DNA from: Flectonema sp. DT1601
Lineage: Eukaryota
DNA length: 64,000 nucleotides
Direction of reading: 5' to 3'
Assembly: GCA_964019425.1 (NCBI GenBank)
Contig: OZ025787.1
Coordinates: forward strand, 620,001-684,000
Shown here piece after piece: positions 33,771 through 64,000 of this stretch. The first letter of the stretch is position 1. The number at the start of each line of letters is the position of its first letter. The position numbers and the translations under genes are program-made. A model generated the notes under the pieces. That model had not been told where the DNA came from and did no database searches. It worked only from the letters and a program-made list of their open reading frames with translations.

Positions 33771-35163
33771 AGACGAGCCGCTATGAAAAAGAATATAGAG
33801 TTCGTTAGTTTAGCATCTCATTTCAATCGCTCATATCTGTGACTCACTATCAGTCACTCATAATTAGTGGCAGACCTGCCAGTACTGTTTTTTTCTGCCT
33901 TTAAAAAGTATTGTAAGAGCCAAGAAATTTGACTACACACGTAAACCTGCTTAAGTCAGTTCACGGTTTCGTTGCACAAGCAAAAACCAAACATCGAATC
34001 ATTCTGTGTAGTCAGTTCTATTTTTTTATAATTATTATTTTTTATATTTGTGCATCTACGTGTTTTCTCCCTTTTCCTTTTCTCTAATCGAGCGTCAACT
34101 AAACCAAACTAACTTCTTTCTTTTAGGTGAAATCGGTTTCAAAAAGCAAAAACGTTTTGTATGTTCGTAAAGGGTTTTCTGATCTGACTAGCAGCCCTAT
34201 GTAAGTGATTCTTTAACCCCATTGTTGCCTCGGAATTACCAAACTAAATCAAAGGCTCAAAGGCTCAATTGTATTTTTATTTGTACCGCCGTATTCAGTT
34301 CGGAGACGAAACTATTCAGATTGAAAGCAGCCGTTATTTCTAATGGTTAAAGTTATTGATTTATTTTCCACCTTGTGACGAGATTCTGTCGTCGTTCAAC
34401 GAAATATCAGGCAATAATCTGAATAGTTTTTTTTTTTTAAATTTGTGACTCATTTTTTACGTGTGACGAAATAATCTTTTTTTTTGAGTTATCTGTGACA
34501 ACAAGTTATCTCAATTTCATCACACGCGTTAGAAAAAACTGATCTTCCCTGACTGTGGCTAACTGCCTAATATTCTTTTTATATTTTTCTTTTGTACCGA
34601 CGAAGTCGGAGAAGAAACTATTCAGATTGAAAGCCGTTATTTCTAATGGTCAAAGTTATTGATTTATTTTCCCGACAGGATTCTATCTGCGTTCAAGGAA
34701 ATATAACGATAGGGTTAATCTGAGGGTTTTTTTTGTTGCTCCCCAGTTTTTGTCGAACTGGAAGGCATTCTGACAGTGTCAGTTTGCAACAAAATCAAAC
34801 AAACAAAAATCTTTATTAGCTGTGTGTGAATCTTATTACTACTCAGCCAGTAGACAGAACCTACATCGTCAAGTCAGCTATCAATCGCTTCTCTCCCAAG
34901 TTATTTTTAGTCATATCGTAAATGACTTCTCAAGCGACGAATCTCTCTGTTCTCCGAGCTGTGCTATTGACTAAAAAGGTTTTTGTTCTCAACAAACAAC
35001 GTCTTCTGGTCAATGGGACAAAAAATGTAATTTTCCCTTTTATCTTTTTTTTTTTTCTAAACGTATCTTTTCTTTGATTAACGACTACGAATATTTTTTT
35101 TCAGTCAAATACTTGATATTAATCTTGTTTTTAATACCTAAAGTTGTTACTGTTTTTGTATTG

Positions 35164-36115
35164 GTCCGGCGCAGTTATGACCTTAAACTGACTGTCATCT
35201 TACCTGATCCTTTTGGTTTTCATTTCTTGCTGAGTGATATGGCTATGTGCTGCCCAAATCTTTTGTGGTACATTTCTAAAGCTTTTCGGTAAGCCCACAG
35301 TACACTTATAATGCTTGGACAACTGGGGGTGAACGATCCTCGGTACTGTTCCGGGGTTTTCTATTTTCTTTCGTGGAGTGTGGGCATATGGCACATGTGG
35401 TCGTATTATAAAGAAAGATGTATATGAAAGAAAGAAGATTTTTTATTTTTTTCACCTTCCCCCCACTCCCAGATCATTTCTCTTTTATTTTATTTAGTTG
35501 TTTACAACCTATTAGCCTCTGGGCAAGGTAGAGGTTGGAAGTCGATCACTTCCAGCCAATACTATGAAACTACAATCTTCGCGATTGGGTCCTTACTGAT
35601 GCGGGCTACCCAGACCCCTCGTAGTCATCAGTTTGTATTTTGCTAACTAACTAACACCCATGTGCCGAAAGAAGCGTCTTCGTTCGTCTGGCGGTGCCCC
35701 GAGTCTCGGACACCTCTATAGAGTACTGTCTGAGCATGAGTGGAACCTTTTTATTTTCTTATTATTCATCCCCCATAAACATAACTCAGCCCCACTCATT
35801 TTGTTGGTATTCCGCGTTCACTGATATATTTATATAGGGGGACTGTGTTAAATGGTGGAAGAAATAACCATGTTGACGTGGTTCCCTTGGCTGAGAAGGG
35901 CAAACGCGATGAGTAGGACAGGCCTGACACCGCAGTGTCCCCCTTACTTTCTTTCGCTGAAGAGGGCTGGGTAAGGGGAATGGTCCGAAGAAAGATTGTT
36001 TTTAATCTTAGCCCGAAACCAACTTGTTTGTTGTCCTACGAAATTTTGCCTTTTTTTTGATTAACTGTCACTGATAATTATTAATACTAACTAACTAACT
36101 TTTCTTTGATACTAA
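35164..36115 (+). mobile_element. 952-bp non-coding retroposon-like insertion with a (CTAA)n tail and a 97-bp target-site duplication (35067-35163 / 36116-36212)
   Basis: The flanking direct repeat is present only once in the paralogous spacer (~24062-24147). No convincing ORF. A hammerhead candidate lies near the 3' end. Confidence 0.8.
35940..36021 (+). ncRNA. Candidate non-circularly permuted hammerhead ribozyme
   Basis: CUGAAGA 35957-63; stem II 35964-71/36007-14; GAAA 36015-18; stem III UGG 35981-83/CCA 36019-21; GUC cleavage after 35985; stem I 35986-94/35947-56; extra helix 35940-47/35971-78. Confidence 0.75.
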
Positions 36116-36701
36116 CTTTTCTTTGATTAACGACTACGAATATTTTTTTCCAGTCAAGTACTTGATATTAATCTTGTTTTTAATACCTAAAGTTGTTACT
36201 GTTTTTGTATTGTCAAAGTTTCACCCCCAGTTTTTGGAAGGCATCCTGACAATAGCAGTTTGCAACAAAATCGAATGAACAAAAATCTTTGTTCGCTGTG
36301 TGTGAATCTTATTAGTAGACAAAACCTACATCGTCAAGTCAGCTATCAATAGTTTCTCTCCCCAGCTATTTTTATTCATATCGTAAATGACTTCTCAAGC
36401 GACGGATCTCTCTGTTCTCCGAGCTGTGCTATTGACTAAAAAGGTTTTGTTCTCAACAGACACGTATAGTGATGTGTTCATACAAATTGCAGGGACCAGT
36501 GTTACACTATAGTCATTTCTCTTTGAATTGATTTGGTATTGTTTCATTCATTTGCGAACTGTACATACAAATACTCTCACCATTACAGATTGATTAATTC
36601 ATGGTGTGGAATCTGATGACCAATGAGGTAAAAGTGTATAGTTAGTTTTATAATTTCAAAAAGTATTTTCTCACCAGGACAGTCATCACTATCCATAGAG
36701 A

Positions 36702-46050: not shown

Positions 46051-48437
46051 CCCTTACACCACCAAAACCCCCAAAATAACGGGTCCAAAATTTTGCTGTT
46101 TTTTCAAAAAGAGAAAAGGTACCCCCCCAGAAAACCTATGTACCAAACCGGACACAACCACCCCTACGGGGTCAATAGCACCTGTCACCCGCACACCTAA
46201 CGGTGCGTACCTTGGTGCGTTGTTGCACATTCAGCAGAACTAACAAAGTCGGCACTCAACGGTTTCCATTCATAGCAGCTGCATGTTATTCCCTTCCTGT
46301 ATTTTGAAAGGGATGATGTTTCTGCGCAACATCATGTCAGAGGGAGCCCAAGTAAAGAGAATGCCAAATCACGGCCAAAATTAAATCGAAAAATCAGCCT
46401 GTTTTTTGAGCTTGTAAAAGCCCTCTGTGGTAGCAGAAACTACGCGAACAACTTGCATCATAGCACAGCAGGTGCAGATACACAAGACGTCGAAGATTAC
46501 CGCATCGAGGCTGATAAGCTCGGAAAATGTAAATAACATCGATCCCAGATCATGGAACTTCATTAGTAACAGTGCAGCTACTGGGCTGGATTTATAACTT
46601 TCGCCTCTTTACCCCACTATTGGGCATGCTGGATTTTCGAGAAGTCGGCGGCTTAGGAACATCACAAGGAATTTTGTAGTTTTGGAGGGTGTGATACCTT
46701 TTGAAACATGGGTAAGCACAAAGCGCTTGATTGCATCGCTCACAGTAATACATTATTTGTATGCGCTTTGCGTGAACTGCACACTGACGAGCCTTTTCCA
46801 TCTTTCCGAGGTAGTCCCAAAGCTGGCTTGAGTCGATCAGGGATTGATACTGATGGTGGAGAAGGCGGTACTGATGGTGTTATTAATAGTGTTGGTGCTG
46901 CTCGGGTACATTTAAAGTACCTAGAAGCTGCGCAATCAGCGCCAACTTAAAGGAGGAAAATCTCTTGCTTCTCCAACCAGATTCACTCCTATCCGTCCAA
47001 ACTCCACCGTGTCCACGTCGCATCAGAATAAAAGAATTCAAGATGCACGTCTCCAATATAAAAATAAAAACCTTCAAATACCAGCGAGGAGATTTCTGCG
47101 TCCTACGGGTTCTATCCTTGATGGCACAGCGAGGTCTGCGCCTCCCTTCATGATGTTGTACTTCGCCACCTGCTGTGGCATCGGAACAGAGGATTTTTTA
47201 TACTTGGCCCGAACTTTGCCTGACCTTCTGCAGGTTGTCCTTCCCGTCTTTCCACTTCACGAGGTGGACCTTGTGGGACTGACTCCATACGCATCATACT
47301 TCTTCAGCTGTTGTTGGGACTCTTGTCTTGTAGGGCGGCCACGGTGTGCTTTTTTTTTCGATATCAGATCTTTATCAAGGTCTTTTCTGTCTTTTCTCAC
47401 TGCTCCAACAGCCTTTAGCCTACTTTCAGCAGCCTGACGAAAAACTTGTACCGAGAAAACCAATTGTCGAAGCACACCCAGTATCGATAAGCTTCAGTAA
47501 GGTTTCGAACCACTTTGTCCGGCTTACGGGAATCCTTCCTATGGTTCTTACCAACATAAAAAATACACTTCAGAGTATATCCCTCGGTCACACAAGGTGT
47601 AAACCTTGATTCCGAATCGCTTTCTCTTCATCGGAGAGTAGAACATGAACGATATACGTCCACGGCAGGGAATTATTGTTTCGTCGACACTTAAATAGCG
47701 GCCTGGTGTTACCGCGGATGACCACTTAGGGAGAACAAGGTCGAGCAGTGGACGCACCTTGTGAAGTTTATCACGCTTCGGATCACTAAAATCGGGAGCT
47801 GGCAATGTCGCAGAGAAGTGTAAATTTCTCTGAATTTCGGCAAAGCCATTACGCGAAAACCCTTTTGGAAAGTAGGGGGTCGACAGCATGTCATTTAAAC
47901 TCCAGTAATCTTCCAGGTTAGATTTTATTATTAGGTGCGTCAGTAGCGTCCCCCAACAAAAGCCCTCAGCTCCTGTACTGGTTTCGAATTTTCTTCCCTC
48001 TGTGCATAGCCTCAGAGTTTTCTTTCATCAGCTGGAAAACTGATTCTCTGAAGAAAAACTCAAAAACCTGCAGTTCCGAGTTGCCTGCAACTTTAACCTT
48101 TAACGTTTCTTGGAAACGTGACTTTATTCTTGGTAACCTTGTTACCTCCCCTCCCCATTCAGGGTCAGATACTTCGTCAAACAACGAATCGGAGCACACC
48201 GACGGCGGATCAACTTCATCAGAACTGTGGACCGACATATTTCCTAAGTTGATTTTGGCCAGCTATAGCGAATGGAAAAATTACTATTCAATAAAAACTA
48301 TTGCGACGCAACACGTAAGGAACACAAAAGACGTCGCAATAATACCTCTTCCGTGAAATCGTTGCACTCAGAAATGCAAAATTTTCACTTAGCAAAATTT
48401 TTTTTTTTTTCAGACTGATATATCCGGTGGTGTAAGG
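46051..48437 (-). mobile_element. Decayed piggyBac transposon
   Basis: TTAA|CCCTTACACCACC at the left end and GGTGGTGTAAGG|TTAG at the right. Fragmented minus-strand transposase with SVDETII, FDNWFS, YNIMKGGAD and a C-terminal Cys-rich domain (CERCNQALCAYPCFKRYH). Confidence 0.92.
46592..48238 (-). pseudogene. piggyBac transposase with multiple frameshifts and stops
   Basis: The DDD motifs are distributed over several short ORFs in different frames. Confidence 0.88.
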
Positions 48438-50197
48438 TTAGATCTTCCCCCTTTTTCACTTACGGTAGCGTGCTCAACTACGTTCACGTGGCCTCCACCA
48501 AAGAAACCAGGCAAAATGTTCAATGCCTCCTGTTTCATGGTGACAGTACTTTTATTTTTTGTGCAAAGACCTGCAGTATTCTTCCCAGATATATCTTTTC
48601 GTATCGTATCAATTTCCCCCTCTTTTTTTTCTTGTGACTTTTTTTTCTTTTGGAGTGATCCAAAAAAGTAATATTAGGATGTTGAAACCCGCAGCGTTGT
48701 TCTAAAGAATCAAGCTACTTTAATAGTTACTTTGATTGGCACAATACGTAAATATCTGCAGCGAAGTGTATTTTCAGGGTTTGCATGAGAGCTTAATTAG
48801 TCTTTTTTACCGACGACCGTGACAAGAGGCAGCTCATCTGCGTCTTGCACTTTTAAAGTGAATTTTCTCAGACAAAAATCCAGCTGACAGGGAAAAGCAA
48901 AGGAATCAGCATGTGTTTTCTTCCCGATGGGGGAAAAACAAAAAAAACATTGTGCTCTCGTCTGTCTTCTGGGATAGAGCTGGGGAAAGAGAGAGTTCTC
49001 TCTCTGCGTTAGCAGCGTTTCGAATCCCAGCAATATTTCTCAGTTAGAGGAAGCAAAAGTCATAACAAGGTTGCTGTAGGTGAACCTGCAGCAGATTATT
49101 ACCAAAGTCCTTAAAATTATTCTGGCAATCCATGCTGCGACCTCGAAACCGGCTGCTGCTTGAGTTACGAAGCATGGATTAACATCCCATTCTTTGTGTC
49201 TTTTTTACAATTTTCCTTTTTCCCTCCCTCATTTCTGTTACTCTTTTAGTAGCGTGTTATATGGGCTCCGCTATATTGATTCTTTGTAACTGCTAACATT
49301 CGGCGCATTGTTCGATTTACTAAAATGTTATTACCTTTCTGACAGCACGTATTTTGTTTTGTTAGGCAGTACAAGTAACTTTTATTTTCGTTCCCTTTTT
49401 TTCCCCCCTTCGAACTATTTGAAAAATGAAAAAAGGTAAGTCTACACAACAAGTTAAATAATCTACAAAACCTTTTTTTTCATTTTATTTTCTTCCTCTC
49501 CTTTTTATTCCCTACCCTCAAGTTTTAAAAAGCCCCGCTGTTCAGCATGGAGCAGATAACGGAGAAAGTAATACACAACATGAAAAAATGAATTCCGTTC
49601 CCTCTTGTTCTCTTGGTCTAATATCAATTTTAAATTGAAGTTGAAATTGGGTTTTTCTAAAATTTATCTTTCCCACAAGGTAACACCAACAGCATGATCT
49701 GTATTCTCGTTGCTTTTATTACTCTATGCTTCCGTTAATGCTACTCAATCAGACTGATGAAGCCTGCTCTTTTCATTCAGATTTAAAGAAATGTACGAAG
49801 GCTTCGACCGTGTTTGAAGAATGTTTGTGCCTCGTTGGCCATTTGATCAGATTTTTGAACCATTGTCTCAAGCTTATCATGTCTCCCCGGTGGCTGTAGG
49901 CTTTTTTATTTACTGTAACTACAAATAACATGGATGGCATACAAAAAAAAAAGCTCATCTATCTTCGGTGAGTCGGCCAGCAGTCACAAACGGACATTGA
50001 AAGCGCGGATAATTGTTGTTGCTGTGGAAACCTTGCTCTGCTGAAGAGGGAGTTGAAATTTTCCCCACCTGCATTCTGATTCAAGTTGTCTTCGAGAGTA
50101 CTTGAATCAGAATACTTGCTTTTGTCAAAAAGCTACTTATTCCTCCAGCTCATACGTCCTTCTCATCTTTTCTGGAGACTGGACCGCTGGTGAACGC

Positions 50198-50356
50198 GCA
50201 AACAGAACAAATCTTTTCTTTTGTTCTTCGTTAAAACTACTTTGAGACACGGTCTTCCGCTAATCATCGCACGAACAGAACATATCTTTTCTTGTTCTCG
50301 TTTAAACATTACCTGCAAACAGAGCATATCTTTTTTTTGTTCTTGTTAAAACTCTA
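50198..50356 (+). repeat. Three imperfect ~42-bp direct repeats (GCAAACAGAACAAATCTTTT...GTTCT..GTTAAAAC)
   Basis: Copies begin near 50198, 50269 and 50315. Confidence 0.7.
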
Positions 50357-50774
50357 TTTTAACAAAGCTTGCGAATCAGCCTGCGGGGGAGGAGGGGCGG
50401 CTGGGGGTAGCGACGGGACCCACGCCGGAACTGGCAAGCCTGAAGTGCGAGGGAGTAATTAGCCTTCCTATACTGTATGCACCTGGGAAAGAGAAGTATA
50501 CCTAATTGAATGAACATGCAGTTAACAAGTCTGAGATCACAAAGAAGAATCTACACTGTGGTGCAGATTACTTCTGCGTAGGGGTTGTACCGGGCCGTTT
50601 CGATTCGACGGGACACCGGCGGGGGAAGGGTGGGTGGGACTTAATTTAAATATAAGTTTTCTTGTGATGAAGACAGGGGTGTGAGAACTGATAAAGGGAT
50701 AGAAATATTTGATATCGTCAGAAAACTAATAGAGACATTGACCTATATAAATAAATAAGGAACGGCGATTATGT

Positions 50775-50846
50775 GGCTACATAGCTCAATTGATAGAACG
50801 CCGGTCTGAAATAATGGCGGTCGAGGGTTCAAAACCCGCTGACGGC
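50775..50846 (+). ncRNA. tRNA-derived (Phe-GAA-like) element in repeat A2, with a broken acceptor stem
   Basis: 72-nt canonical spacing: A box TAGCTCAATTGATAG, anticodon loop CTGAAAT, B box GGTTCAAAACC, then T5 at 50849-53. Confidence 0.75.
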
Positions 50847-50980
50847 GGTTTTTGTTTGGTGCTCAGTTTCGGTGGCAAATTACCTAAATGGAATTTTGAT
50901 AATTAGCCTTCCTATACTGTATGCACCTGGGAAAGAGAAGTATACTTAATTGAATGAACATGCAGTTAACAAGTCTGAGA

Positions 50981-52700
50981 TCACAAAGAAGAATCTACAC
51001 TGTGGTGCAGATTACTTCTGCGTAGGGGTTGTACCGGGCCGTTTCGATTCGACGGGACACCGGCACCACCACCACCACGCGAGTTAAAGAACGACCCCAA
51101 CGCTTGTTCAACCTTCGCTCTCGTTCCGTGTGAGACTTCCTCTCGAGAAGGAATGTCTGCTGGGTTTAGCTTCGTGCTTACCCAGGCAAGGGAGTAGGAA
51201 CATTTCAAAACTAAAAGGCATTCAATCGCAGTTATCAAACACCTGTTGAGACTGTGTGAGCGAACACACATCTTCTTCCTAAAAGCACCACAAACTGTAG
51301 TGTTGTCAACCCAGATGGAAAGGTGGTCGGCCTTTGAGTGTCTGTCCAAGAGCGTCCGCTTCAAGGATATTTATATGTCGGTCTTCACCAGCAGGCCATG
51401 CCGCACCAAGAATTTCCAGCTCACCTGTTTTCCAAACGATGACACCTCCCCATCCCTGCAATGAGGCATCTACAAACACTTCGGCAGTCCTCCCCTCTTT
51501 CTGCTCAGGCATAATTATTCTCTCCTTCTGCACAGCACCGATCCACATTTCTAATTCCCTCCTTACTGAACGGGGCAATTTTAGTACCTGCTGTACTTGT
51601 AGGGTCCCCTTGTTCAAGTAATTTGTGACCCTGCGAAGATACTTCAAGCTAAACCAGTACTTCCCAGGTGGAACTCCAACAATGGAGCTGGCATGCAACA
51701 GGCGACCTCCTAAGGACTCCAACTCCGATGCAGTCAATGAATCAAGGTTGGTGTTCTTGATTTTTCTCCCAATCTTGGTCCCCAAGCTCACCCTGTCCGT
51801 ATGGTGATCAAAGGTGACCCCCAAGAACTCATACTCCGGAGAGAGATCCACAGTATCACTTGGTTTCCATGTGATGTTTGCCATTCTGGCAAAGGAGTCC
51901 ATCCTCTCAGCTGCGCATTTAACCTTCTCCTTGGGACCAAATAACCTAATGTTATCGATCCACCAGTGAATCCAACGGCATCCTGCAGGGACTTCAAGAC
52001 TGGATTCTACCAGGTCTGCATACCTGAGGAGTCAACTTCACTCTTCAGTTTCTCTGATTCGGCTGGGAAGGTTTATTCTTTGACTCGACTTCCGATGGGT
52101 CATGTGTGTGCCCCAGAATTGATGAACACCATCGCTGCAGTAGTTGCTGGTGACCCGCTGTTCGTTAAGAAAGAATTTGCGGAGGAGGAAACCTCCGAAT
52201 GTACAGCATCCAGGTAACAAGAAATGTGCTGCAGTGGAACGAATGGTTCATATCCCCCAGACGAGATCAGTTCGTTCTGCTCTTTTGTCCAGAGGATGAA
52301 CCGCTGTCTGTTCCCCGTCTCCCTCTCCTCTCATACACTGTAAATGGTACATTCCGAGACAGCGGTACAGAATCACTCGGCACTGCAATACCACACTCAA
52401 CCAATTCTCTTGCATGTTTCTCTGCCAACTTCGAAGTTGCCCTCTTCGAGAGCCGTGCATTGACAGAAGAATCCCTAGGAAAGAAGGTGAGGTTCCAAAC
52501 ATAATCAAACCTCTTCAGGACCGATGGCAACATCCTCCCCCTTACAGCTGAAACATCCATCTTAGGTGTAGGGGCCACATGTAGTGGTGAAGATATCTCC
52601 TCCTTCGTTATGGGGATGCGCGTGCTCTTTGTTCTGTGCGTGAACTGCGCTGCTACGCCCCGCATCACATCCCGTTCACTCGCATTCTTTGATCTATCAA
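50981..52700 (-). pseudogene. RT/RNase H of the YR element, disrupted by frameshifts (~52330, ~51340) and an internal inversion
   Basis: Minus strand: NVPFTV, RQRFILW, WIDNIRL, EFLGV, and RH motifs VDAS, HINILEA, VDNTT, NPADIPSR. Plus strand: RDFKTGFYQ and RLPMG. Confidence 0.85.
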
Positions 52701-53915
52701 CTACAGGAAACAGGTGACATCCCCTGTCTTTAACGCCCTCGCCATTGCAATTGGGTTTCCGCCGTACCTCAGCGTGGTGTCTGAAAGGGCCGACACTCCT
52801 GCATGCTTGGCCAGCCTGCTTATCAGCCCTTCTGTGAGTCCTTGCTGCTCTTGGTCCGATGCCAGAACCTCCAACAGATGACTTATCGCACCTCTTTTTA
52901 TTGAGTGGGCGGTGTATCTTTTCATCCTGCCGTCCTGCTGGAACGTTTTCACTAATTTTGACGTGTCCCACGGGTGTAGTTTTTTGAACTCCCCCATCGC
53001 ATCCAGCAAGATCTTTATCTCTTCTGTGTGATTCCCCTTTATCACCGTCCATCTGCTTGGCGAGTAAGGGTTTGCCCTCCTTCCCTTCGGCGTGCGGAAC
53101 CAATCTATAATAATCTCTGACGGACTTACAGAGATGAACTGGTCCCTTGAGAGCGCTGCGGTCTCGCCCCATCTTGATGCAGTCTTCCAGCACACTAGCA
53201 TTGCCAAGTGGGTCTTTAAGTCTTGCCCCCTTGCCCAATCCACCAGGTCGAAACTTGTCATTGGCGTTGCCTGTTCCAGCGGTATTGCCGCCCCGTTCGC
53301 CCTCAGTGCTGCAGCCAAGCTCAACAGCGGTCCGTTTTCTATTCCGATCCTCCCCATCACTGCAGACAGACTCTTTGCATAAGAGAGAAGCCCTTGCACT
53401 GCCACACCTGTCGCCATCACGAACAGAACAGCCGAGCTTGCGTTTGCTGGTTTCTCCTTTTCCCTTGCCCAGGCCCGAAATCTTCTCCACAGATTCCGCC
53501 TGCTTGCTGTTGTCTTTGAGGCCCACATCTTCTCCAGTGTTTCTTGAAGCTTTTCTGTCGCCTCCATGTATGTGACGGAATCCTCGGCATGCCGCCTCTT
53601 CGTCCCCTCTGGGCATCCCTCCATCATGTCCAACAGGATCTTCCCAACCACATTTCCTTCTAATCCTTCTGAGGGCATTGTTTCCGTTGAATCTGCGATC
53701 TCTTCTGTTCCAACTGAGCTTATTTTCATCTCCCTTCCGCTGGGGAATCCTCGGACTGCGGATTTTACAATGTTGTCCGGGTCTTGAACGATTAAACTTA
53801 CAGATCCTCCTAACCTTGCTTTTAGTCGGCTGCTCCTCAACACCTGTCTTGAGTGCTTCTGCATAAGTCTTGCGGGCTTTCTCAACTTTAACTTTGGCAA
53901 TGGGGATGTTTCCAA
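52701..53915 (-). CDS. Tyrosine recombinase of the YR retrotransposon
   Basis: Catalytic set R (SRWGE), K (PKG), HxxR (HSIKR), H (AKH) and Y (LRY) is intact. Start codon uncertain. Confidence 0.88.
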   Translation of the reverse strand: METSPLPKLKLRKPARLMQKHSRQVLRSSRLKARLGGSVSLIVQDPDNIVKSAVRGFPSGREMKISSVGTEEIADSTETMPSEGLEGNVVGKILLDMMEGCPEGTKRRHAEDSVTYMEATEKLQETLEKMWASKTTASRRNLWRRFRAWAREKEKPANASSAVLFVMATGVAVQGLLSYAKSLSAVMGRIGIENGPLLSLAAALRANGAAIPLEQATPMTSFDLVDWARGQDLKTHLAMLVCWKTASRWGETAALSRDQFISVSPSEIIIDWFRTPKGRRANPYSPSRWTVIKGNHTEEIKILLDAMGEFKKLHPWDTSKLVKTFQQDGRMKRYTAHSIKRGAISHLLEVLASDQEQQGLTEGLISRLAKHAGVSALSDTTLRYGGNPIAMARALKTGDVTCFL

Positions 53916-53984
53916 TACTTGCGTGTCTAACCTTCGTTTTAGGAACGTTGGTTTTGTTGTTACTTGCAGGGTCCGGTCGGCTGG

Positions 53985-55223
53985 TCACTTCGCGAACCCT
54001 CTCCCGTTTCCCGACGATGGATACGTAGAGACAAACGATCTCCCCCCTTTCCGTTTCGGTTGTTGCATCTTCGCATTTCTATTTCTCTTCGCTATTGCGT
54101 TTGCTTTCTCCAGAGGGTCCTCCGATGCAACTTCTAAGATCATCTCCAACTCTGATCTCTTCGTACCATCCTTGCAAAAGTAATACTGCATCCGCAGTTG
54201 CTCCAACAGCTCGTTCCCCAACTCCACAAAGTGCGGGTTCTCCTCCCACCCTTCAACGTACTCCAAACCGAGAACGAAGTTCTTCAACTGCCTGAAGAAG
54301 CCAAGTAGCTGGCCCCCACCAACCTTGTACTCCAGACCGTTCACATATCGCTCCCTGATCCCATGGATCAGTGCCTCGGTCTTTCCTGACTTCATAACGG
54401 ATGCCCACTTTGTTACATCCCTGCCTGCAGACGGATCAGTCACCTCCCGTGTCATCGCTTCGTTCGACCCCGGTGCTGGTAGTTGCTGTGCTGCTCCCCC
54501 GACTACTGGAACTTGTTGAGCCGTAGTCAACCCGTTCTTCAGATCTGCTATTTCTTGTAATATTTTTTGGATCACTTCCGCATTCTGCTTTTGCTGATCT
54601 CTCTGCTGTTGTGTGATTTGCTGGATAACGCTAGCTTGTTGTTGTTGTTGTTGGGCCTGTTGTTCTCTGAAGGCCTCCCACATGCCTCCGATGTTCTCGG
54701 CTTTTTCAGTGGCCTCCCCAACCCTTCTCCTCACTGATTGGCTCTCCCTCTGATACTGGCTAAACGCCGTCTGCGTTTCGCTTCTCAGCGAGTCGAACCC
54801 CTGCTTGGTATCACTTCTCAGTGTGTCTGTGCTCTGCTGCAGCGATCCCATCGCATCCGCCTCGTCGTGCGTCACCAGCCTATCCGACCCCCCCTTAGAT
54901 ATCCGCTCGCTCATCCGGGCGGCGCTCTGGTTGACCAACTGCAGGCGGCTCCTTGATAACACACCAAGTATTACTAGACACTTATTCATCGAAAGTGTCT
55001 TGGCCGCATCATTGGAGATCCCGAGACACATGGCCAGTGTGCCTTGGATCAACCTTCTTGTCTCCTTGTCGGATCTCAATGTACTTAAGTCGATGCTAAA
55101 GGGGATGCTTGCAACCAGCTCGTCCAGATTGATATTATCGAGCTTCTTTGGTGGTTCCTCACCCATCTGCGCCTTCCAAGTCTCAATTAAGAACTCAGGG
55201 AACTCAAAATTTACACGAGTCAT
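53985..55223 (-). CDS. Gag-like ORF1 of the YR retrotransposon (412 aa, coiled-coil/Gln-rich)
   Basis: First ORF immediately after repeat A1. Assigned by position only. Confidence 0.7.
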   Translation of the reverse strand: MTRVNFEFPEFLIETWKAQMGEEPPKKLDNINLDELVASIPFSIDLSTLRSDKETRRLIQGTLAMCLGISNDAAKTLSMNKCLVILGVLSRSRLQLVNQSAARMSERISKGGSDRLVTHDEADAMGSLQQSTDTLRSDTKQGFDSLRSETQTAFSQYQRESQSVRRRVGEATEKAENIGGMWEAFREQQAQQQQQQASVIQQITQQQRDQQKQNAEVIQKILQEIADLKNGLTTAQQVPVVGGAAQQLPAPGSNEAMTREVTDPSAGRDVTKWASVMKSGKTEALIHGIRERYVNGLEYKVGGGQLLGFFRQLKNFVLGLEYVEGWEENPHFVELGNELLEQLRMQYYFCKDGTKRSELEMILEVASEDPLEKANAIAKRNRNAKMQQPKRKGGRSFVSTYPSSGNGRGFAK

Positions 55224-55401
55224 TATTTAACTTAATTTAAATATAAGTTTTCTTGTGATGAAGACAGGGGTGTGAGAACTGATAAAGGGATAGAAATATT
55301 TGATATCGTCAGAAAACTAATAGAGACATTGACCTATATAAATAAATAAAGGAACGTTTTTTATTTATTTAATAAATAAATAAAAGGAACGGCGATTATG
55401 T

Positions 55402-55473
55402 GGCTACATAGCTCAATTGATAGAACGCCGGTCTGAAATAATGGCGGTCGAGGGTTCAAAACCCGCTGACGGC
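55402..55473 (+). ncRNA. Second, identical tRNA-derived element in repeat A1
   Basis: Same sequence as 50775-50846. Confidence 0.75.
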
Positions 55474-55527
55474 GGTTTTTGTTTGGTGCTCAGTTTCGGT
55501 GGCAAATTACCTAAATGGAATTTTGAT

Positions 55528-55682
55528 ATTCCGGGTGATTGGGATGGGAATTGCCTGTTCAGGAGTGTGTGCCAACCCCTGGGGACGCCAGAGGGGTGGA
55601 AGGGCAGACATGGAGAGCTCCGCAGGAGAACGGCAGGGTACCTGACAATTTGCAGGTTTGCGGGCGTTAGAAGAGGATGGTG
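55528..55682 (+). pseudogene. OTU-like cysteine protease fragment
   Basis: IPGDWDGNCLFRSV...HGELRRRTAGYL resembles the OTU Cys box (DGNCLFRA...LR). Confidence 0.6.
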
Positions 55683-55746
55683 GCCTTCCTATACTGTATG
55701 CACCTGGGAAAGAGAAGTATACTTAATTGAATGAACATGCAGTTAA

Positions 55747-58700
55747 TATCATTAATTTTAGAACAGAAAAGTGAGAATAAGAAAAGTAGAGATCAATAAA
55801 AGAAAAGTATTCATTTCTGCAGTTTCCTAACATCAAAGGGTAATAGAATATGTAGTTTCAGGCCTTAATCTTATACTACTTGTCCCTTTTTAGGCCTTCA
55901 TCAGTAAGTTCTAAGGGACTTCATTCTATGTTGAAGTTGCTATCGTTCAAAGATAAAAATCCATCGGAGCTCGCCAGGATAGGGCTAGCAATGTTTATTT
56001 GCTTTTGCTCAATTTGAATTTTTGACGTCTGATCGTTTCACTATTACAGTCGAGTTAATGGATGAGTCGTCATCCAATTTGCGTTTTACTTTATCTTCGC
56101 ATATCATCAAAGGTCCTATATTCGCTGGTGTCATCGTAACATCCATATCAGTCTGAGCTTTTAATGGTATCATATGGAAACTATACTCTGTAGTTCGGTA
56201 CATCTTGTCAAAATGATCGAAAGGGAGTCTTAAATCTTTTGTGCCTTTAAGAATGTCTCGGATGATCATGGACTCAAATGAGACTAGCGCAACAATAAAG
56301 TGAGTCATCCTTGTTTTCGCTTTATGTAGAATAAGTGCTGCGGCTGCTTCAGGATAATCGAAATCTGCTGGGTTAACGAAGTACTCGATTCTTCTGTTGA
56401 ATTTAGTCATGCAAGCCATGTTAAGTACTTGTAGCGAGAACCAACCATCTGGTGATGGTTTATGCTCTGAGTTGTTCGGTTCTACTTTAAGAGATTCTTC
56501 ATAAAATCGCTGTTGGTAGTTTTGCAGAAAACTGAAGTTAATTCTATCGATATATAAATGATCTGCAATGAAGTTGAGCGCTGCCCATCCGCATTCTCCA
56601 CCGAGAAGACCTTCTCCTGATGTTTGATGTAGGGATGGTGGAAATCGTTTATCCAAGGAATGGCTTGTAGAGCCTGTGTGGTTAATTGTATCCTTTTCGA
56701 TGCTTAATGGGACTTTGTGACTAAACTTCTCAAAAGTAAGGTTGATACGTCGACGCATTGCAGCTGCTGTATTACCATCATCAATGTGAGAGCTAATGAA
56801 GCGGAGGCATGCTGCTCTGATATTGTCAGATTTATAGCCCCGGTTGAGTAATCTATAAGTTACCGCTTCAAGTTCCTGTAAAAAGTCTGCCTGGTTGTTG
56901 CAGATTTTTAGAGCTCGTAAGATCATGGTGGTAAAGATACCTGAACCCATTGATTCTTGAGCTGCGGAATGCTGATGAGTAAACCTTGTTGGCGTAATAT
57001 GCCAACCCCTGGCTTTGTCATTAACACTTAAACGAATCCATCGTTTATTTGTGTTAGTGATCTCTATTCGGATACGAATTCCTATATAAGAGACATCATC
57101 AATATTATTCGAAGTATCAGTGTAATCCATTGAATATAGACTTGCTGGTGGAGGGTCGCAACTCCAGGTGAGGAAGTCGTCGATGTATCTACACGAGTGG
57201 TCATGTTGCCGAGCTAAGTCTAGATTTTTTGCTTCAATTAAAGAATCGATATATGCGGATTCAACTCTATAGCAGTAGAGATTTGCTATATCGCTACTGG
57301 CGTTGCCACCCATTGGAATGCCTATTGTTTGTCTCCAAATATAACCTCTTAATGCAATAAAGGAGGAGTCAATACAGAATTCAAGTAATTTTTGACATTC
57401 TGCAAGCGCAAGAGAAGGGAATCGTGTAGGGTCACTCGATTCAAGACGTAAGATATTTTTGAAACTAAAGGCTTCTTGCAGTGCTTCACTTACTTTAGTT
57501 TTAATAGCGTTGTGTGGTAGGCGGGTGTACATTGTTGTAAAATCAAAAGTCTTAGGGGATAATTTTTTCAAAACCATCAAATTCTGTTTAATCGAACTAG
57601 AGACTTCATCATCTGATTCCACAATCCAGTATCGTTTGAACCGTGAATGCATATCTTTCTCTTTCAATATAGTCATCGCATTTTTAAGGATACTAGAGAG
57701 ATGTTGGTGCGCATATGTTGTTGCTGTTGCAGGTGCAAGATTATGATCCTTATCGTATTGTCGTTGTTCTGCTGTACCCGTGAAGGATGAGACACCAGTA
57801 ATCCATCTCATCCCGATAGCTGATTTGTGTAATTTAATCATTCCATATAGGTGTGGGAGTCGATCAGAGTGGCGGGCATTGATTGAAATGTTCATGTTCT
57901 TGAGGTTGGCTAGTAGAGTTGGTTCGTCTGATGTGATGCGTTCATAAGAATCACTTTGTAGCTGCTCTCGAAGTAAAAGCAAATAATTTATTTTACACAT
58001 GTAACCAATATCGTGCTGTCCTTTGTCAACTTTAAGAAACACAAACTGAGATTGAAGATTCTGAAGTTCAGTCCATGCTTTATTTGATAATGGTGAGTCA
58101 AGAAAGCTTAAGTCTTTACTTAATTTAAGCTGCAATTGTTTAAGAATTGTGTTTTTAAAGATCGATTTAAAGTTATCGCCAACGTTCTTGTATGCGTGAG
58201 TTATATATTCAGTAATATCATTTTCAAGTGATTCTAATGCAGCTGATGGGTGCACTGGGACTCTAAATTTTTGACCTCGTGCGAAGAAGTCTCTTAGTTC
58301 TTCTGAGACTGGTAAATCAATAGCGAGTCCGCAAGAATGGCCGTTGTATTTTAAACTATTCAGTTCTTGAGTACTGCAATTGCAAGTAGATTGAGTCGGG
58401 GAGTCTGAATTGATGCTTGTTGAAGATGCATTTAAGACGATATCACCAACTGTTGTTCCAAGTTTGTTACAGATGCGTGTTCTTTCAAGAGTTCTTAGAC
58501 AAGGACAGGTTGCTTTAACTTCATCACATCTAAGAACAGCGCCAAGACCAATACGATCTAATGCTTTGTGGCCAAGATTCAGTTTCAACCAGTAAGTGTC
58601 CGAATCCTTCTTCTTGTTTTCCCTTCTGAGATTGGCAGGATTTAGTCTTTGCATGAAACAATGCTCCAGCTGTTTTACGCGGGCAGTGTAATGTTCTTGA

Positions 58701-59841
58701 AAAAAGTTACTTCTAAGAAACTGCAAGACTTTTGTAGTGGAGCGTGTCTGCCAACGCGAGAAGTCGTATTCAACGAATTCTTCGTCAGTAAGCTTAAACA
58801 AATAGTTAAGCTTTGACGGGATCCATTTTTTATCCGTTGCGACTTGAAAAGAAACACCTGTTTCTAGTGTTATTGTTGTTGGTTGCAATGTATTGGAGGA
58901 CGTTGTGCTGCTCACATTGTAACCGTCATCTGCTACTTCGTTGAAGTTGTAGAAGTTTTCTGTAGCAAGATGTTGTTGTCTTACAGGTGGAGGTTGGCGG
59001 TTGTTTCTTGTGCGATTTCTGTTCGTACTCAATTTTGGTGCATAATAGCCACGCGTATTTAATAGATTTTTAAAGGAATTAATATAATACTGTTCACGTG
59101 GTGCGGCAGCTCTGTAGAAATCCGCTGCGTTGTTGTAATTGCAATCCGGAATCTTTTCTAGCGGCATGGCTAGGAGTGGGAATCTCTGCTTTGCCAGGAA
59201 CTCATAAAGCTTGTTCCCCTGGTAGCTGTTGTCCCTTGAGTGCTTTTTCGCAGCATACCAGTGGGAATGAACTCGCTTCATTGTAGAATTATACGTTTGC
59301 CCTACGTATACTACTTTCTGGTCTGATCTTCTAAAGAGTGCATAAATGACTCCGGGGGTACGCATTCCGGGTTGTCTGCCTCTTATTTTGCGGCGTTGTA
59401 AAATTTTCCTTTGGAAAATATGGCGTTGACGGTTACAGTTACTCTCGTAAACTGACCAATCTATTCCGCCGTTTCGCTGCTTGTTTCTGTGCGCAGCTCC
59501 TTCATTATGCCAATTAAAATGGGCTTGGCTAGAATGCCAGTTTGCGCGGGAACGTCCATGTTGGCGTCGAATTCTATGTTGTGGGTGTTGTGTAAAACTG
59601 TGTCTCACTTCTCTTACTGATGACTTTCTCCATGGATTAGAATTGTAAGAGGGAGGCAATGCTCGTTCAATGATTAGACGCATTTTACCAGCACCTACGG
59701 ATCGAACTGCTGCACTGATTGCAGCAAATGGGAGCTCTTTCCTGTTTTTTTGCTCTATCATAATTTTTAAAGTGCTTCCTGATTGCACTATCTTCCTTAA
59801 CTGGAAGTCTCTTAAAGGTAGCACTCTAAATAGTGCTGTCC
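55747..59841 (-). mobile_element. Penelope-like retroelement with N-terminal endonuclease (Naiad/Chlamys-type), 5'-truncated, 15-bp TSD TGAACATGCAGTTAA
   Basis: TSD at 55732-55746 and 59842-59856. One long ORF with GIY-YIG followed by RT. Hammerhead candidate in the 3' UTR. Confidence 0.9.
55852..55919 (-). ncRNA. Candidate non-circularly permuted hammerhead ribozyme in the PLE 3' UTR
   Basis: Minus strand reads GUCCCUU-agaa-CUUA-CUGAUGA-AGGCCU-aaa-AAGGGAC-aa-GUAG-UA^-UAAG-auua-AGGCCU-GAAA-CUAC. Predicted cleavage is between 55874 and 55873. Confidence 0.78.
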
Positions 59842-59848
59842 TGAACAT
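56009..59848 (-). CDS. PLE polyprotein: GIY-YIG endonuclease, reverse transcriptase, C-terminal Josephin-like domain (1279 aa; the ATG is supplied by the TSD)
   Basis: Endonuclease: GVIYAL...VYVGQT...KR...H...REQYYI...LN. RT: KVDKG, YGMIKLHK, FDFTTMYT, GIPMGG, RYIDD. C-terminus: ECGWAALN...GWFSLQVL...THF. Confidence 0.9.
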   Translation of the reverse strand: MFRTALFRVLPLRDFQLRKIVQSGSTLKIMIEQKNRKELPFAAISAAVRSVGAGKMRLIIERALPPSYNSNPWRKSSVREVRHSFTQHPQHRIRRQHGRSRANWHSSQAHFNWHNEGAAHRNKQRNGGIDWSVYESNCNRQRHIFQRKILQRRKIRGRQPGMRTPGVIYALFRRSDQKVVYVGQTYNSTMKRVHSHWYAAKKHSRDNSYQGNKLYEFLAKQRFPLLAMPLEKIPDCNYNNAADFYRAAAPREQYYINSFKNLLNTRGYYAPKLSTNRNRTRNNRQPPPVRQQHLATENFYNFNEVADDGYNVSSTTSSNTLQPTTITLETGVSFQVATDKKWIPSKLNYLFKLTDEEFVEYDFSRWQTRSTTKVLQFLRSNFFQEHYTARVKQLEHCFMQRLNPANLRRENKKKDSDTYWLKLNLGHKALDRIGLGAVLRCDEVKATCPCLRTLERTRICNKLGTTVGDIVLNASSTSINSDSPTQSTCNCSTQELNSLKYNGHSCGLAIDLPVSEELRDFFARGQKFRVPVHPSAALESLENDITEYITHAYKNVGDNFKSIFKNTILKQLQLKLSKDLSFLDSPLSNKAWTELQNLQSQFVFLKVDKGQHDIGYMCKINYLLLLREQLQSDSYERITSDEPTLLANLKNMNISINARHSDRLPHLYGMIKLHKSAIGMRWITGVSSFTGTAEQRQYDKDHNLAPATATTYAHQHLSSILKNAMTILKEKDMHSRFKRYWIVESDDEVSSSIKQNLMVLKKLSPKTFDFTTMYTRLPHNAIKTKVSEALQEAFSFKNILRLESSDPTRFPSLALAECQKLLEFCIDSSFIALRGYIWRQTIGIPMGGNASSDIANLYCYRVESAYIDSLIEAKNLDLARQHDHSCRYIDDFLTWSCDPPPASLYSMDYTDTSNNIDDVSYIGIRIRIEITNTNKRWIRLSVNDKARGWHITPTRFTHQHSAAQESMGSGIFTTMILRALKICNNQADFLQELEAVTYRLLNRGYKSDNIRAACLRFISSHIDDGNTAAAMRRRINLTFEKFSHKVPLSIEKDTINHTGSTSHSLDKRFPPSLHQTSGEGLLGGECGWAALNFIADHLYIDRINFSFLQNYQQRFYEESLKVEPNNSEHKPSPDGWFSLQVLNMACMTKFNRRIEYFVNPADFDYPEAAAALILHKAKTRMTHFIVALVSFESMIIRDILKGTKDLRLPFDHFDKMYRTTEYSFHMIPLKAQTDMDVTMTPANIGPLMICEDKVKRKLDDDSSINSTVIVKRSDVKNSN

Positions 59849-61329
59849 GCAGTTAACAAGTCTGGGGTCACTTAGAAGAATCTACACTGTGGTGCAGATT
59901 ACTTCTGCGTAGGGGTTGTGCTGGGCCGTTTCGATTCGACGGGGCACCGGCACCACCACCAGTGGGGGCGGCGGTGCACACCCCGGTGGTCTACTCGAGG
60001 GTGGGGGGATCGACCCAAGAGGACGTCGGTGAGATGGATCCGGTGGCGAACAAGGACCGGATGGAGGCACGCGAGGCACCCGTCGGGGGAGCACCGCGGG
60101 GTACACGTCCAGGGAAGAGGCGGGGTGTGTCCCCCGGACGCGAGTAGTAGGGGGGCAGGCGCAGCGCAAGCTGCTCCTACTGGTGTCGTCTGGAACGCGG
60201 AGATGGAGAAGCTGGGGGCGGCGGCATGCCTGATACACATGGGGGCGCTCGACAGGAGGTTCACGTGGTCGGGCTGCCTACCGACATGGGACGAAGCGAC
60301 GGCGGAGTACGTGGCCGGGGGGTTAACTGTTCGAGTTTGTACGTAAAATACAAATGTTTTGTATCATAGACAACGTAACGATAATTTAACATTAGTTCTG
60401 AGATGCAAACCCGCAAACAGTGGCTAAAGGTAAAGGTGTTGGTGTAGGTATACACTCTGCGATTGACGTAAATACTTTACATTATAATAAATGTTTCTAA
60501 CTCATCTGCATACACATCTCTTTTTCCGTGTTGTCATTCAGTGCAGTACGGAATCGAGTTATTCAATTTTGAATGAATCGTGAGCCCTGGGAAACCAAAA
60601 CCAGGGTATAATGTAATACGGCAGAGTGTAGTTTCACCTACAAATCACTTGCTTAAAATCTTGTTCGCTATCGGTCTCCGGGAGATATTTAGCCTTAGCA
60701 GAGGGATTCCTGCCAATTAGCTCAGCATTCCCAAACTGAGCGACTCTTGCTGACTGTGAAGGTAGACTGGATGGCTGCTCAACAATTCTTTGAAAAAAAT
60801 ATGTTAGCAAAAATTGCTAGTTCGTAGCACACTACTGGCGGAGCAGCACTCACCTTAAATAAATTATGGTGGTTGCATGATCCAACAAATAATGTTGGGG
60901 TGACGGCATCGACGGGTTTTGGGCTAAGACATTTAATTGGCAAAGTCCAGGGTGGGGAATGTATTCAAAAAGAAAACAATCACCTGTGTCCCTGTATGTT
61001 CTATACGCGAACATGTCAGAGTTCTCACAAAATTGACCTTCATGGTTAAGGGTTGCCTCAGTATTTCCTTTAGTTTATGTAACAGGAATGTACTTTCTTT
61101 CAATAAAGAAAACAAAATGACGTAAGATAGATTTACATTATTTGAATTATACGAATTACAATAATATTTATCTCTAAATGTTGTCCTAATTCAAAGGGGC
61201 TGCGGGCCAACTCAGGTAACTGACAAAGAAACTGGACGACGGACGACGGACGCACAAGGAGGCAGAAGGGCTGAGACCAGCACAAGAAGTGGGACAACCC
61301 GAGGAAAAAGAGCGACCCCCGCCGAAGGA

Positions 61330-61400
61330 GGAGAAGCTGTATGCGGTGGCGGTGGGATGGAAACCGGGAGTGTATGCATCGTGGGGGTCAGCCCACGCAA
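61330..61400 (+). pseudogene. RNase H1 N-terminal hybrid-binding (Cauli_VI/viroplasmin-like) domain fragment
   Basis: KLYAVAVGWKPGVYASWGSA matches the YAVxxGxxPGVYxxW motif. It sits in a GC-rich island with no long ORF. Confidence 0.65.
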
Positions 61401-64000
61401 ACCCGCAAACGAAGGGGACGAGAGGCCGGAAGGCAAAGACGGGGGCAAAGGGGGCCGGAAAGGAGGACCCAAGTCCGCAGGTCGCTTGCAGGTTTGCTGC
61501 AAGCGGAAATGGGAGAGTCCACCCCGAGCTCAGGTGAACGGCAGGCGAGGAGGTACGCGATCCTCAGTGCCGATCCGCGGTGTGAAAGCATGGCCTAACG
61601 ATCCTTTGGTCTCGCTTCATGTTCAAGGGATGAAGCCGGGTTTGACAGAAAAATTACCACAGGAATAACTGGCTTGTAGCAGCCAAACGTTCAGCCACAG
61701 CGACGTTGCTTTTTGATCCTTCGTTGTTGGCTCTTCCTAGTTATTCATTACTTTATCATCATTTTCTCTCTCAGGTGCAATACAGTGATGGAAAGCTAAT
61801 TATCAAAATTCCATTTAGGATATATCCGTGCTTCGATGATGGAGGTTATGAACTTGGAAGCGGTAATGCTACTGAAAAACGTGCATGAAAAAAAGAGCAA
61901 AAGGTTGCTTTTCTTCTTACTACATCCCCATCTGTAGTTTATCTCACGTTTCTATTTTATTGAAAAGAATGAAATGAAAGATAACCTTAATACTTATTTC
62001 CATCACAGGGTAGAATTGCAGCACATTACAGAGATAAGTTCAATAAAGAACTTGATTGCTTTGGATTGATTCTTTTCAAAAGGAAACCTCAGCACAAGCA
62101 GCAACCTCTGTCGAGTTTGAATTACTTTTCCAAATCCTGGCCTCTTACCTTCTAGCCTGGGGAATGTAAGAGAAGAGTTAGAATTAACATTCATCGTTAG
62201 TGATATCTTCTCAACACCTGCACCCCTCCAAACTGTTGTGTATTCATCATTTGTAATAAAAGATCCCAACATTGAATCCATTTTCCACTGCCAGTATTTC
62301 TCATTGCCATCGGTTGTTTGCTTCGGTCTCTTTGTCTGTCTCTCTTCTTTCTAAGTTTTTCATAACCAATGCGTAGTATTCTTTATTCGGTGTAGCATAA
62401 AGTGATTATTCCTCTTTCTTTATTAGACGTGAATAAACAGACTGCAGCATCTGTTGAAGAACTGCACACAGTGTGAAAGACTCCTGATGTTGATCCTACA
62501 ACAGATTGGGATTCATCCTCATATCCACATGTAATAAACCTCACTTGATACGTCCCCCATCTGAGATGTTGGATACATTCTTGGCGTATGGAATCGAGTT
62601 ATCAATTTCAAACAATCGTGAGACGAGCAATTACGTATGCTTGACAATAGCTACTTGATAGTTTTTCCATATCACTTGGAGGATGTCGCTGTAATAGAAA
62701 ATACTCAGGTACTTGAATGAACATTGCACAACAATAAGCCACTGCTTTACAGTAGGCCTTGAGTGAGGCCGGGTAATTCCATAAATCAAAACATATACAG
62801 CAGACTAAACGCTACATAAGTGTAAAAGAACGGTACTTGGTTGCTCCTCACAGGTTGTGACTCTGGGAAGCAACAATAATAGATTTCGTTTTTAAGCAAT
62901 AATAGAATAGTAATCCTGACAACACCAAAACATATACTTCAAGACTTACCAGAATTGACCCCTTGCCCGCAGCTCGCATGAAAGTCGAGTGAAAAATAAT
63001 AAAAAACCATTCAGATTAGCCTTATATTTTGTTGAACGCAGACAAAATCCTGTCGCACGGGGAAAATAAATCATGACCATAAGAAATATCGGCTTTCAAT
63101 CTGAATAGTTTCTTCCCTGACTACGTCGGTACAAAAAAAAAAAAAAAAAACATTTGCTGCTTATTAGTTGGGCACGCGTTTATTATCTTTTTTTAAAAAA
63201 AAAAAAAGAAAGATCGTTATAAATATGGTATACTATAATAGGAAACAAGTAAACAAAACGAAGGACGACGTTTTTAAATAGTATGAGTGGCTGGACAAAA
63301 AAATTCAAAACTATAATGTGTGTTTTGTAAAGCAAAATTGCCTGACAAAGGCATAAAGTGTAAATGTAGTCCAGCAAGCTCGGATAAATATAATTTTTTT
63401 AACGGTTTATTCGTACAAAACAGAAACAGAACAGTGCAAAAGCTCGATCATGGTCGCAGTGAAGAATTATTTCAAACAAAATAAAACACCTAACGAATAC
63501 ATAAAACAAACTGTGATCGGGTTTCAAAAGAACTCCACTGTAGACCACTGGGCTAAAACGCCGACAATTATCTTCGAGAGGGGTCCGAAAAGAATAAATT
63601 ATAATAGAATTGCACCCTACTAATCCACAGGGACAGGGGAAAAGTTCGATTGTCGTCCCGACGCGCAACTTGGTGACAACGGTGGAGACCAATCGTGGAT
63701 TTCGGAAGTAGAAGGGATGCTAACTCGGGAAACAGAGGAGGGGTGGGCCCCTCGAGACCCACAACTTGGAGATATCGGTGGTGACCAATCATGAACACCA
63801 GTTGTCGGAGTGACACTACATTGGGGAGGTGTGGATGAGTTGTCGGATCGTAGAGTGTGTATTTGATCACGCAAAGCGAAGCATTCCGTTGAGGGTAAGA
63901 ATTGACCAAAGTGGGAAGTAATTGGTGAAAGTGGTGGAGAGTAAGGGGTGAGCGGATTAGACAGCAGGACACTGTTTTCCCCAAATTGAGAACTCACACA

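Follow-up and report, generated by a model that had tools for sequence, protein, structure and literature searches.

The Penelope-like element and its protein

The 64,000-nucleotide stretch of Flectonema sp. DT1601 DNA analyzed here, hereafter the window (contig OZ025787.1, positions 620,001 to 684,000), contains a solo Penelope-like element (PLE) of 4095 bp on the minus strand at 55747-59841, whose 3′ untranslated region (UTR) carries a complete hammerhead core with an unusual order of strands. The element has an uninterrupted open reading frame (ORF) of 1250 amino acids (aa) at 56009-59761 and a 262-nt 3′ UTR at 55747-56008, both on the minus strand. Identical 15-bp copies of the target-site duplication flank it at 55732-55746 (element 3′ end) and 59842-59856 (element 5′ end). 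This duplication is the only repeat in the one copy examined, which shows no pseudo-long terminal repeat (pseudo-LTR) or partial tandem arrangement. The insertion interrupts the terminal repeat of another retrotransposon, unbroken copies of which occur at 50906-51074 and 50462-50620. Contigs from sequencing runs reach the element in places only, with a depth of 2-3; one from run X1 that joins 55731 to 59842 was considered as an empty allele and rejected, as it probably derives from the uninterrupted repeat copies.

The ORF comprises a GIY-YIG endonuclease from aa 137, a CxC motif at aa 460, a DKG motif at aa 579, a reverse transcriptase (RT) with YIDD at aa 859, and a peptidase-like region from about aa 1055. 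A Pfam search with the whole ORF gave no match, PDB sequence searches returned nothing useful, and GIY-YIG is matched weakly in Pfam (E=0.001), short of the gathering score. Among homologs, the GIY-YIG cut-off is passed by P0010, upstream of its RT match, and that of RVT_1 by P0004. A GIY-YIG domain N-terminal to the RT in one ORF, a CxC between the two, and a DK(G/A) motif mark the element as Naiad/Chlamys-like in the sense of Craig et al. 2021 (PMC8557442). Motifs RT3 and RT4 are 75 aa apart, a spacing that may reflect the clade's insertion in the fingers domain. The endonuclease region has neither a CX2-5CxxC nor a CCHH zinc finger, with two cysteines in the first 260 aa; by the definitions of Craig et al., this zinc-finger-free form is closer to Chlamys than to Naiad.

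The C-terminal region yields weak Peptidase_C39 matches only. It may also bear a likeness to Josephin. Proteins of related PLEs end in differing protease-like domains (P0001, P0012, P0014, P0018, P0002, P0003, and P0004; in the window, 56012-56644 on the minus strand). Four related PLE proteins carry USP/UCH at the C-terminus, and others presumably carry OTU- or Josephin-like motifs there. These endings suggest that deubiquitinase-like domains were captured repeatedly by related PLEs.

A hammerhead of type CSG in the 3′ UTR

Eckert et al. 2023 (PMC10085705) divide the hammerhead into three blocks, C, G, and S, which can follow one another in six named orders. Within 68 bases of the minus strand (55919-55852), the element's 3′ UTR contains the whole core of a hammerhead, its three stems (I-III), and a linking helix of 7 bp, identified from the sequence and with a custom scanner. 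The motif begins 90 nt past the stop codon and ends 105 nt short of the element end. From its 5′ side, the first strand of helix I (55919-55913) pairs with 55888-55882 through seven Watson-Crick pairs and connects stems I and II on their free sides. Block C (55908-55892) follows, with a stem I strand (55908-55905), CUGAUGA (55904-55898), and a stem II strand (55897-55892). After the second strand of helix I comes a 2-nt AA linker (55881-55880) and then block S (55879-55870), formed by a stem III strand, GUA, and a stem I strand; the cut after 55874 is predicted from hammerhead numbering. A 4-nt linker (55869-55866) leads to block G (55865-55852), with a stem II strand, GAAA (55859-55856), and a stem III strand. 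Stem I thus joins 55908-55905 with 55873-55870, stem II joins 55897-55892 with 55865-55860, and stem III joins 55879-55876 with 55855-55852, extended by A15.1-U16.1.

All four helices are purely Watson-Crick, and CUGANGA, GAAA, A15.1-U16.1, and NUH adjoin stems I, II, and III as in a hammerhead core. The blocks run C, S, G from 5′ to 3′ with two pseudoknots. The linkers are short, 2 nt from helix I to stem III and 4 nt from stem I to stem II in the S-G connection, and the gaps beside helix I (4 nt before stem I, 3 nt after stem II) are unpaired. The feature is real, and every testable trait of type CSG is present except the usual G10.1-C11.1 pair. The order is not the C-G-S of minimal or canonical type-I PLE hammerheads with their short palindromic helix III.

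The first-pass annotation had placed the core and stems I-III at these minus-strand positions, and every part of that description is confirmed. Its perfect 7-bp extra helix (55919-55913/55888-55882) corresponds to helix "I" of Eckert et al. 2023, and the order that it called A-C-B is their type CSG. Its placement of the motif on the sense strand of a PLE 3′ UTR is borne out by the ORF domains and the element ends. It had also expected standard descriptors to miss the motif, and Rfam indeed finds no hammerhead in 50000-64000. A further helix that it proposed around the motif (UAGAAU/AUUCUA, 6 bp, predicted only) can pair, joining 55928-55923 with 55849-55844 and spanning 55928-55844 on the minus strand, but is weak at -2.7 kcal/mol. 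In run X1, which probably samples the same family and does so at low depth, no other letters occur inside the motif. Two contigs of that run share the 3′ half of the ribozyme and part 1-6 nt after stem III (55846-55851; depth 2-3), a hint of another copy whose tail differs.

Chance was assessed with the custom scanner, which covers the six block orders and a split-core form, seven wirings in all, and does not require helix I. In 30,000 dinucleotide shuffles of the 262-nt 3′ UTR, not one of the seven wirings turned up, even at a looser score, and at that score 60 shuffles of 29 kb on both strands (about 3.5 Mb shuffled) gave no match either. The 7-bp helix I was matched in 4 of 20,000 shuffles. 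If pairing is ignored, the bare sequence pattern is expected by chance 0.19 times per window on average. Run over 120 listed viral loci as a positive control, the scanner recovered 10 ordinary type-I hammerheads; it found no CGS (type-I order) match in the window.

Viral contigs held no CSG motif among the 240 loci listed in two pattern scans, and none of their 28 protein-pattern matches is a relative. As a by-product, these scans revealed at least 10 canonical type-I and at least one type-II hammerhead (type-I n=10, type-II n=1: loci L201, L219, L241, L248, L253, L277, L289, L296, L310, L319, and L088).

Comparison with known hammerheads

The closest counterparts are two similar natural sequences from soil DNA, CSG-1 and CSG-2, whose rates of cleavage at the predicted site are 0.004 and 0.026 per min. 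The available text of Eckert et al. (PMC10085705) rates the biological relevance of CSG as less well supported than that of SGC. The element's motif shares with CSG-1 and CSG-2 the C-S-G order, the full core, helix I, the AA linker, the 4-nt S-G linker, and a length of about 66-68 nt. It differs in its setting, a eukaryotic retroelement 3′ UTR, whereas no host or element is named for the soil sequences in that text. It also differs in its A10.1-U11.1 pair, a stem I of 4 bp instead of 6, the unpaired 4- and 3-nt gaps beside helix I, and the possible enclosing helix. One of the Eckert descriptor files demands G10.1-C11.1 and allows no more than 10 nt from stem II to stem III; the motif fails it with an A-U pair and 12 nt.

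Ribozymes of type SGC, HRIMA-1 and its variants, have the same ring of strands, a short S-G linker, and helix I. They open the ring at another point and come from metatranscriptomes, where they lie beside hairpin ribozymes. Compensatory mutants of SGC showed that all four helices are needed (PMC10085705).

Among PLEs, the minimal type-I hammerheads described by Cervera and de la Pena 2014 (PMC4209133) likewise place their core near the PLE 3′ end. They are proposed to process tandem RNA, and unit-length or circular RNA is proposed there as the source of tandem PLE copies. These hammerheads have the order CGS with a palindromic helix III that is very short, and their proposed working form is a dimer, whereas the motif at 55919-55852 is double-pseudoknotted with a stable stem III. 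Craig et al. (PMC8557442) describe Naiad and Chlamys elements as lacking canonical hammerheads and mark eight Naiads as "HHR_half_core", with core halves 35-50 nt apart; the core halves here are 38 nt apart, within that range. The element resembles these clades in its N-terminal GIY-YIG, CxC, DK motif, and RT, and Chlamys in its zinc-finger-free endonuclease region, but carries a complete permuted hammerhead and is solo, lacking a pseudo-LTR and flanked by a clear duplication of 15 bp. Because the N-terminal-endonuclease kind is reported without canonical hammerheads, the contrast with known PLEs is sharper than first annotated. No publication linking non-circular hammerheads to PLEs was found in a search that left most subscription journals outside.

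A second CSG motif in the window

A second type-CSG motif, different in sequence, lies on the plus strand at 35940-36021 and was matched in none of 3000 shuffles. Its helix I of 8 bp joins 35940-35947 with 35971-35978, stem I joins 35952-35956 with 35986-35990, and stem II joins 35964-35968 with 36010-36014. The core consists of CUGAAGA (35957-35963) and GAAA (36015-36018), with an AA linker, GUC with a predicted cut after 35985, and a hairpin in the S-G linker. The pair 10.1-11.1 is G-C. This motif is G-U rich and is accepted on the strength of its 8-bp helix I and its insertion context.

That context is a non-coding insertion of about 950 bp at 35164-36112 on the plus strand, with the motif 91 nt from its end. 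The flanking direct repeat of about 100 bp (35064-35163 and 36113-36212) is unusually long, and a paralogous gene unit at 24059-24147 lacks the insertion. We infer the class of the insertion, which is likely a non-autonomous PLE. Short ACTA repeats occur within it at 35643 and 36087.

Both motifs of the window use the same AA linker and keep all helices. At 12 stem positions compared, six differ on both sides and six are the same. Alignment of the two 3′ regions is unconvincing, with a score of 164.5 against a shuffle maximum of 163 under gappy settings; they are treated as separate families.

Hammerheads in related elements

Published Naiads were surveyed in the supplement of Craig et al. by eye, without the scanner, through all 62 "ctgatga" and 23 "ctgacga" matches and parts 14-15. 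In this material, where a motif broken by a line end outside those parts would escape notice, an intact CSG motif with a helix I of 9-13 bp ends Naiad-1, -2, and -3_Nbra, Naiad_Hcon, and Naiad_Hpol. Two further CSG motifs, assigned by position only, lie where Naiad_Parc and Naiad_Asuum do, for seven nematode Naiad records in all. The consensus sequences of Naiad-2_Nbra and Naiad-3_Nbra stop one base past stem III, and Naiad-3_Nbra has the same 4-bp stem I as the window element.

Metagenome relatives were sampled as the best 80 of 153 confirmed loci, 70 of them with at least 150 nt after the stop. Eight of the 70 3′ flanks carry, by scanner, a different form on the sense strand, termed split-C, in which the 5′ strand of stem II and helix I come first, then S and G, and finally stem I with the core. 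No antisense match occurred in the 70 flanks and none in 100 shuffled sets. A ninth match, in L078, was dropped for its 7 G-U pairs, L006 and L034 are near-misses by eye left out of the count, and L062 has the form upstream of its RT. The motifs lie at position 4013 in L001, 3316 in L005, 2028 in L007, 2309 in L008, 2555 in L009, 2873 in L027, 2695 in L032, 1953 in L046, and 168 in L062. A UGCU-like motif often precedes stem II in these loci. Reading the supplement of Craig et al. by eye also showed split-C in Naiad records of jellyfish and octopus, as well as in one further record.

This wiring lies outside the six orders of Eckert et al.; by their strand orders, CSG, SGC, and split-C are one ring of strands with different openings. 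For the element's motif and the nine loci, helix I reaches at least 6 bp in 8 of 10 cognate pairings and in 7 of 90 crossed ones. All 11 tabulated motifs retain CUGANGA, GAAA, and NUH, with stems that vary, a partly circular result since the scanner required these letters. In an RT tree of 53 metagenome loci, a quick search from which no order of events is claimed, the window RT sits on a long branch and groups with eight loci (SH-aLRT 100). Four of these neighbors have split-C by scanner, one has it by eye, and three have none in flanks of 264-585 nt.

Fold and proposed action

Nested folding predicts helix I and stem III as two neighboring hairpins inside the optional enclosing helix; the program cannot score the double pseudoknot, in which stems I and II form between the two loops. 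Helix I has a predicted energy of -9.6 kcal/mol and a mean pair probability of 0.84-0.87. The enclosing helix has mean pair probabilities of 0.89, 0.71, and 0.46 in contexts of 85, 171, and 262 nt. The CSG linkers look strained, yet CSG-1 and CSG-2 cleave with the same linkers. Enumerating the six block orders showed that CSG alone has stems I, II, and III all bridging the cut products; in SGC, only stem III does so. Products of a CSG ribozyme should therefore stay bound and be able to religate, and cutting is likely to be slow and reversible, because all three stems hold the cut ends together.

The proposed action starts from these two hairpins, whose loops would pair twice, as stems I and II, so that a single molecule assembles the usual core. 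Tandem or read-through transcripts would be trimmed by cutting to unit length. The cut ends, still clamped by three stems, may then rejoin or circularize: once released from a tandem transcript, a unit-length RNA could reassemble the ribozyme out of its own two ends and become a circle. The whole ribozyme would thereby be copied into new insertions, which would account for its being kept, along with roughly 100 nt beyond it, in both insertions of the window.

Strength of the reading and alternatives

The sequence at 55919-55852 is almost certainly a selected hammerhead fold, and this copy is likely to cleave in vitro. With moderate confidence, it is read as a complete C-S-G hammerhead in an intact PLE 3′ UTR that probably cuts the element RNA slowly and reversibly after GUA at 55874. 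We infer that the copy is active and processes element RNA. Religation or circularization as its role is plausible, though somewhat less likely than not.

Several observations weigh against this reading. Within the motif, pair 10.1-11.1 is A-U, and stem I is weak, with 4 bp, one G-C pair, and +0.3 kcal/mol as a duplex. Among relatives, none of the best 80 of 153 related loci has an intact CSG, and 61 of the 70 flanks hold no form at the threshold used. Both window insertions keep the whole ribozyme and 91-105 nt beyond it; their templates were therefore not simple 5′ cleavage products. The element copy, solo and without a pseudo-LTR, does not show rolling-circle copying. In a Poseidon element, insertion in vitro did not require hammerhead cleavage, and RNA-seq revealed no ends at the hammerhead cut site.

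Some of these points would suit a fold that matters mainly in its uncut state, marking the 3′ end at which the element's RT binds or initiates, with slow and incidental cutting. Retention of the entire ribozyme in both insertions agrees with this account, as do the Naiad-2_Nbra and Naiad-3_Nbra consensuses that end one base after stem III. The X1 contigs that diverge 1-6 nt past stem III add a weak hint at depth 2-3, and in a Poseidon element RNA that had not been processed was the main substrate in vitro. A binding signal, however, need not keep the catalytic letters that 11 of 11 motifs retain, an argument that is partly circular; the enrichment on the sense strand over shuffles, which is not circular, also speaks for a ribozyme. 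The uncut signal is accordingly judged unlikely.

Less probable still is that the family is real and this copy an attenuated or dead member. The G10.1-C11.1 pair is highly conserved in hammerheads, though not absolute. This motif alone among the 11 tabulated has A-U there, the other 10 having G-C, and together with the weak stem I this would point to decay. The published CSG examples, moreover, are already slow. The copy nevertheless has an intact ORF, a perfect 15-bp duplication, and four perfect Watson-Crick helices, and X1 shows no other letters in its motif (probably the same family, at low depth). An A-U swap at 10.1-11.1 requires changes on both sides, and a 4-bp stem I occurs also in Naiad-3_Nbra and in phage type-I hammerheads selected for it.

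Action as a strand-swapped dimer through a self-complementary stem II, as minimal PLE hammerheads act through stem III, is improbable. The two strands of stem II share one 6-nt palindrome, minimal PLE hammerheads are modeled as acting in dimers, and a cofolded dimer reaches -40.1 kcal/mol against -16.8 per monomer, partly because the program leaves out the pseudoknot of the monomer. The stem II strands differ, however, in the second window motif and the nine split-C loci (L046 partly shares the palindromic letters), and with a stable stem III of 5 bp here, the rationale for dimers in minimal hammerheads falls away. That short motifs came together by chance can practically be dismissed: the motif, singled out by eye within 64 kb, has an unpaired pattern expected 0.19 times per window, but no shuffle reproduces it once pairing is required (0 of 30,000; 0 in about 3.5 Mb), and it recurs at the same place in other elements.

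Other features of the window

The retrotransposon that the PLE interrupts spans 50456-59961 on the minus strand and is of the tyrosine-recombinase type, with the PLE inside its 5′ terminal repeat; we take it to be DIRS/Ngaro-like. Its split direct repeats lie at 50456-50620, 50639-50901, 50900-51074, and 55230-55528, and its ORFs at 55226-53985, 53984-52701, and 52031-51306. An inverted 58-nt piece of the terminal repeat (61762-61819) stands beside a 46-nt match to eukaryotic large-subunit (LSU) rRNA at 61672-61717 on the plus strand. Elsewhere, tandem gene units at 6628-42010 (plus strand) each pair an ORF of about 405 aa, presumably subtilisin-like from its motifs, with a very long Thr/Ala-rich mucin-like ORF built from 45-bp and related repeats. 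A piggyBac-like transposase remnant occupies 47548-48024 on the minus strand (Pfam DDE_Tnp_1_7, E=2e-20).

Implications

The fold type is known; its setting in a eukaryotic retroelement, within a clade said to lack hammerheads, is new to the literature searched. Type CSG thereby gains a biological home and several more divergent examples. A broader generalization, tentative and on balance doubtful, is that CSG, rather than a rarity of soil, is a standard 3′ ribozyme of N-terminal-endonuclease PLEs across protists and nematodes, with the ring opened inside the core elsewhere, as split-C. The knotted orders would then have been adopted to clamp the ends by at least three helices and so religate or circularize RNA without a host ligase.

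The findings also suggest that strand order concealed the ribozymes "missing" from a large retroelement clade. Unlike type I, the CSG order predicts cut products that remain bound and can be religated, and the question of why PLEs carry hammerheads thus becomes testable with short RNAs.

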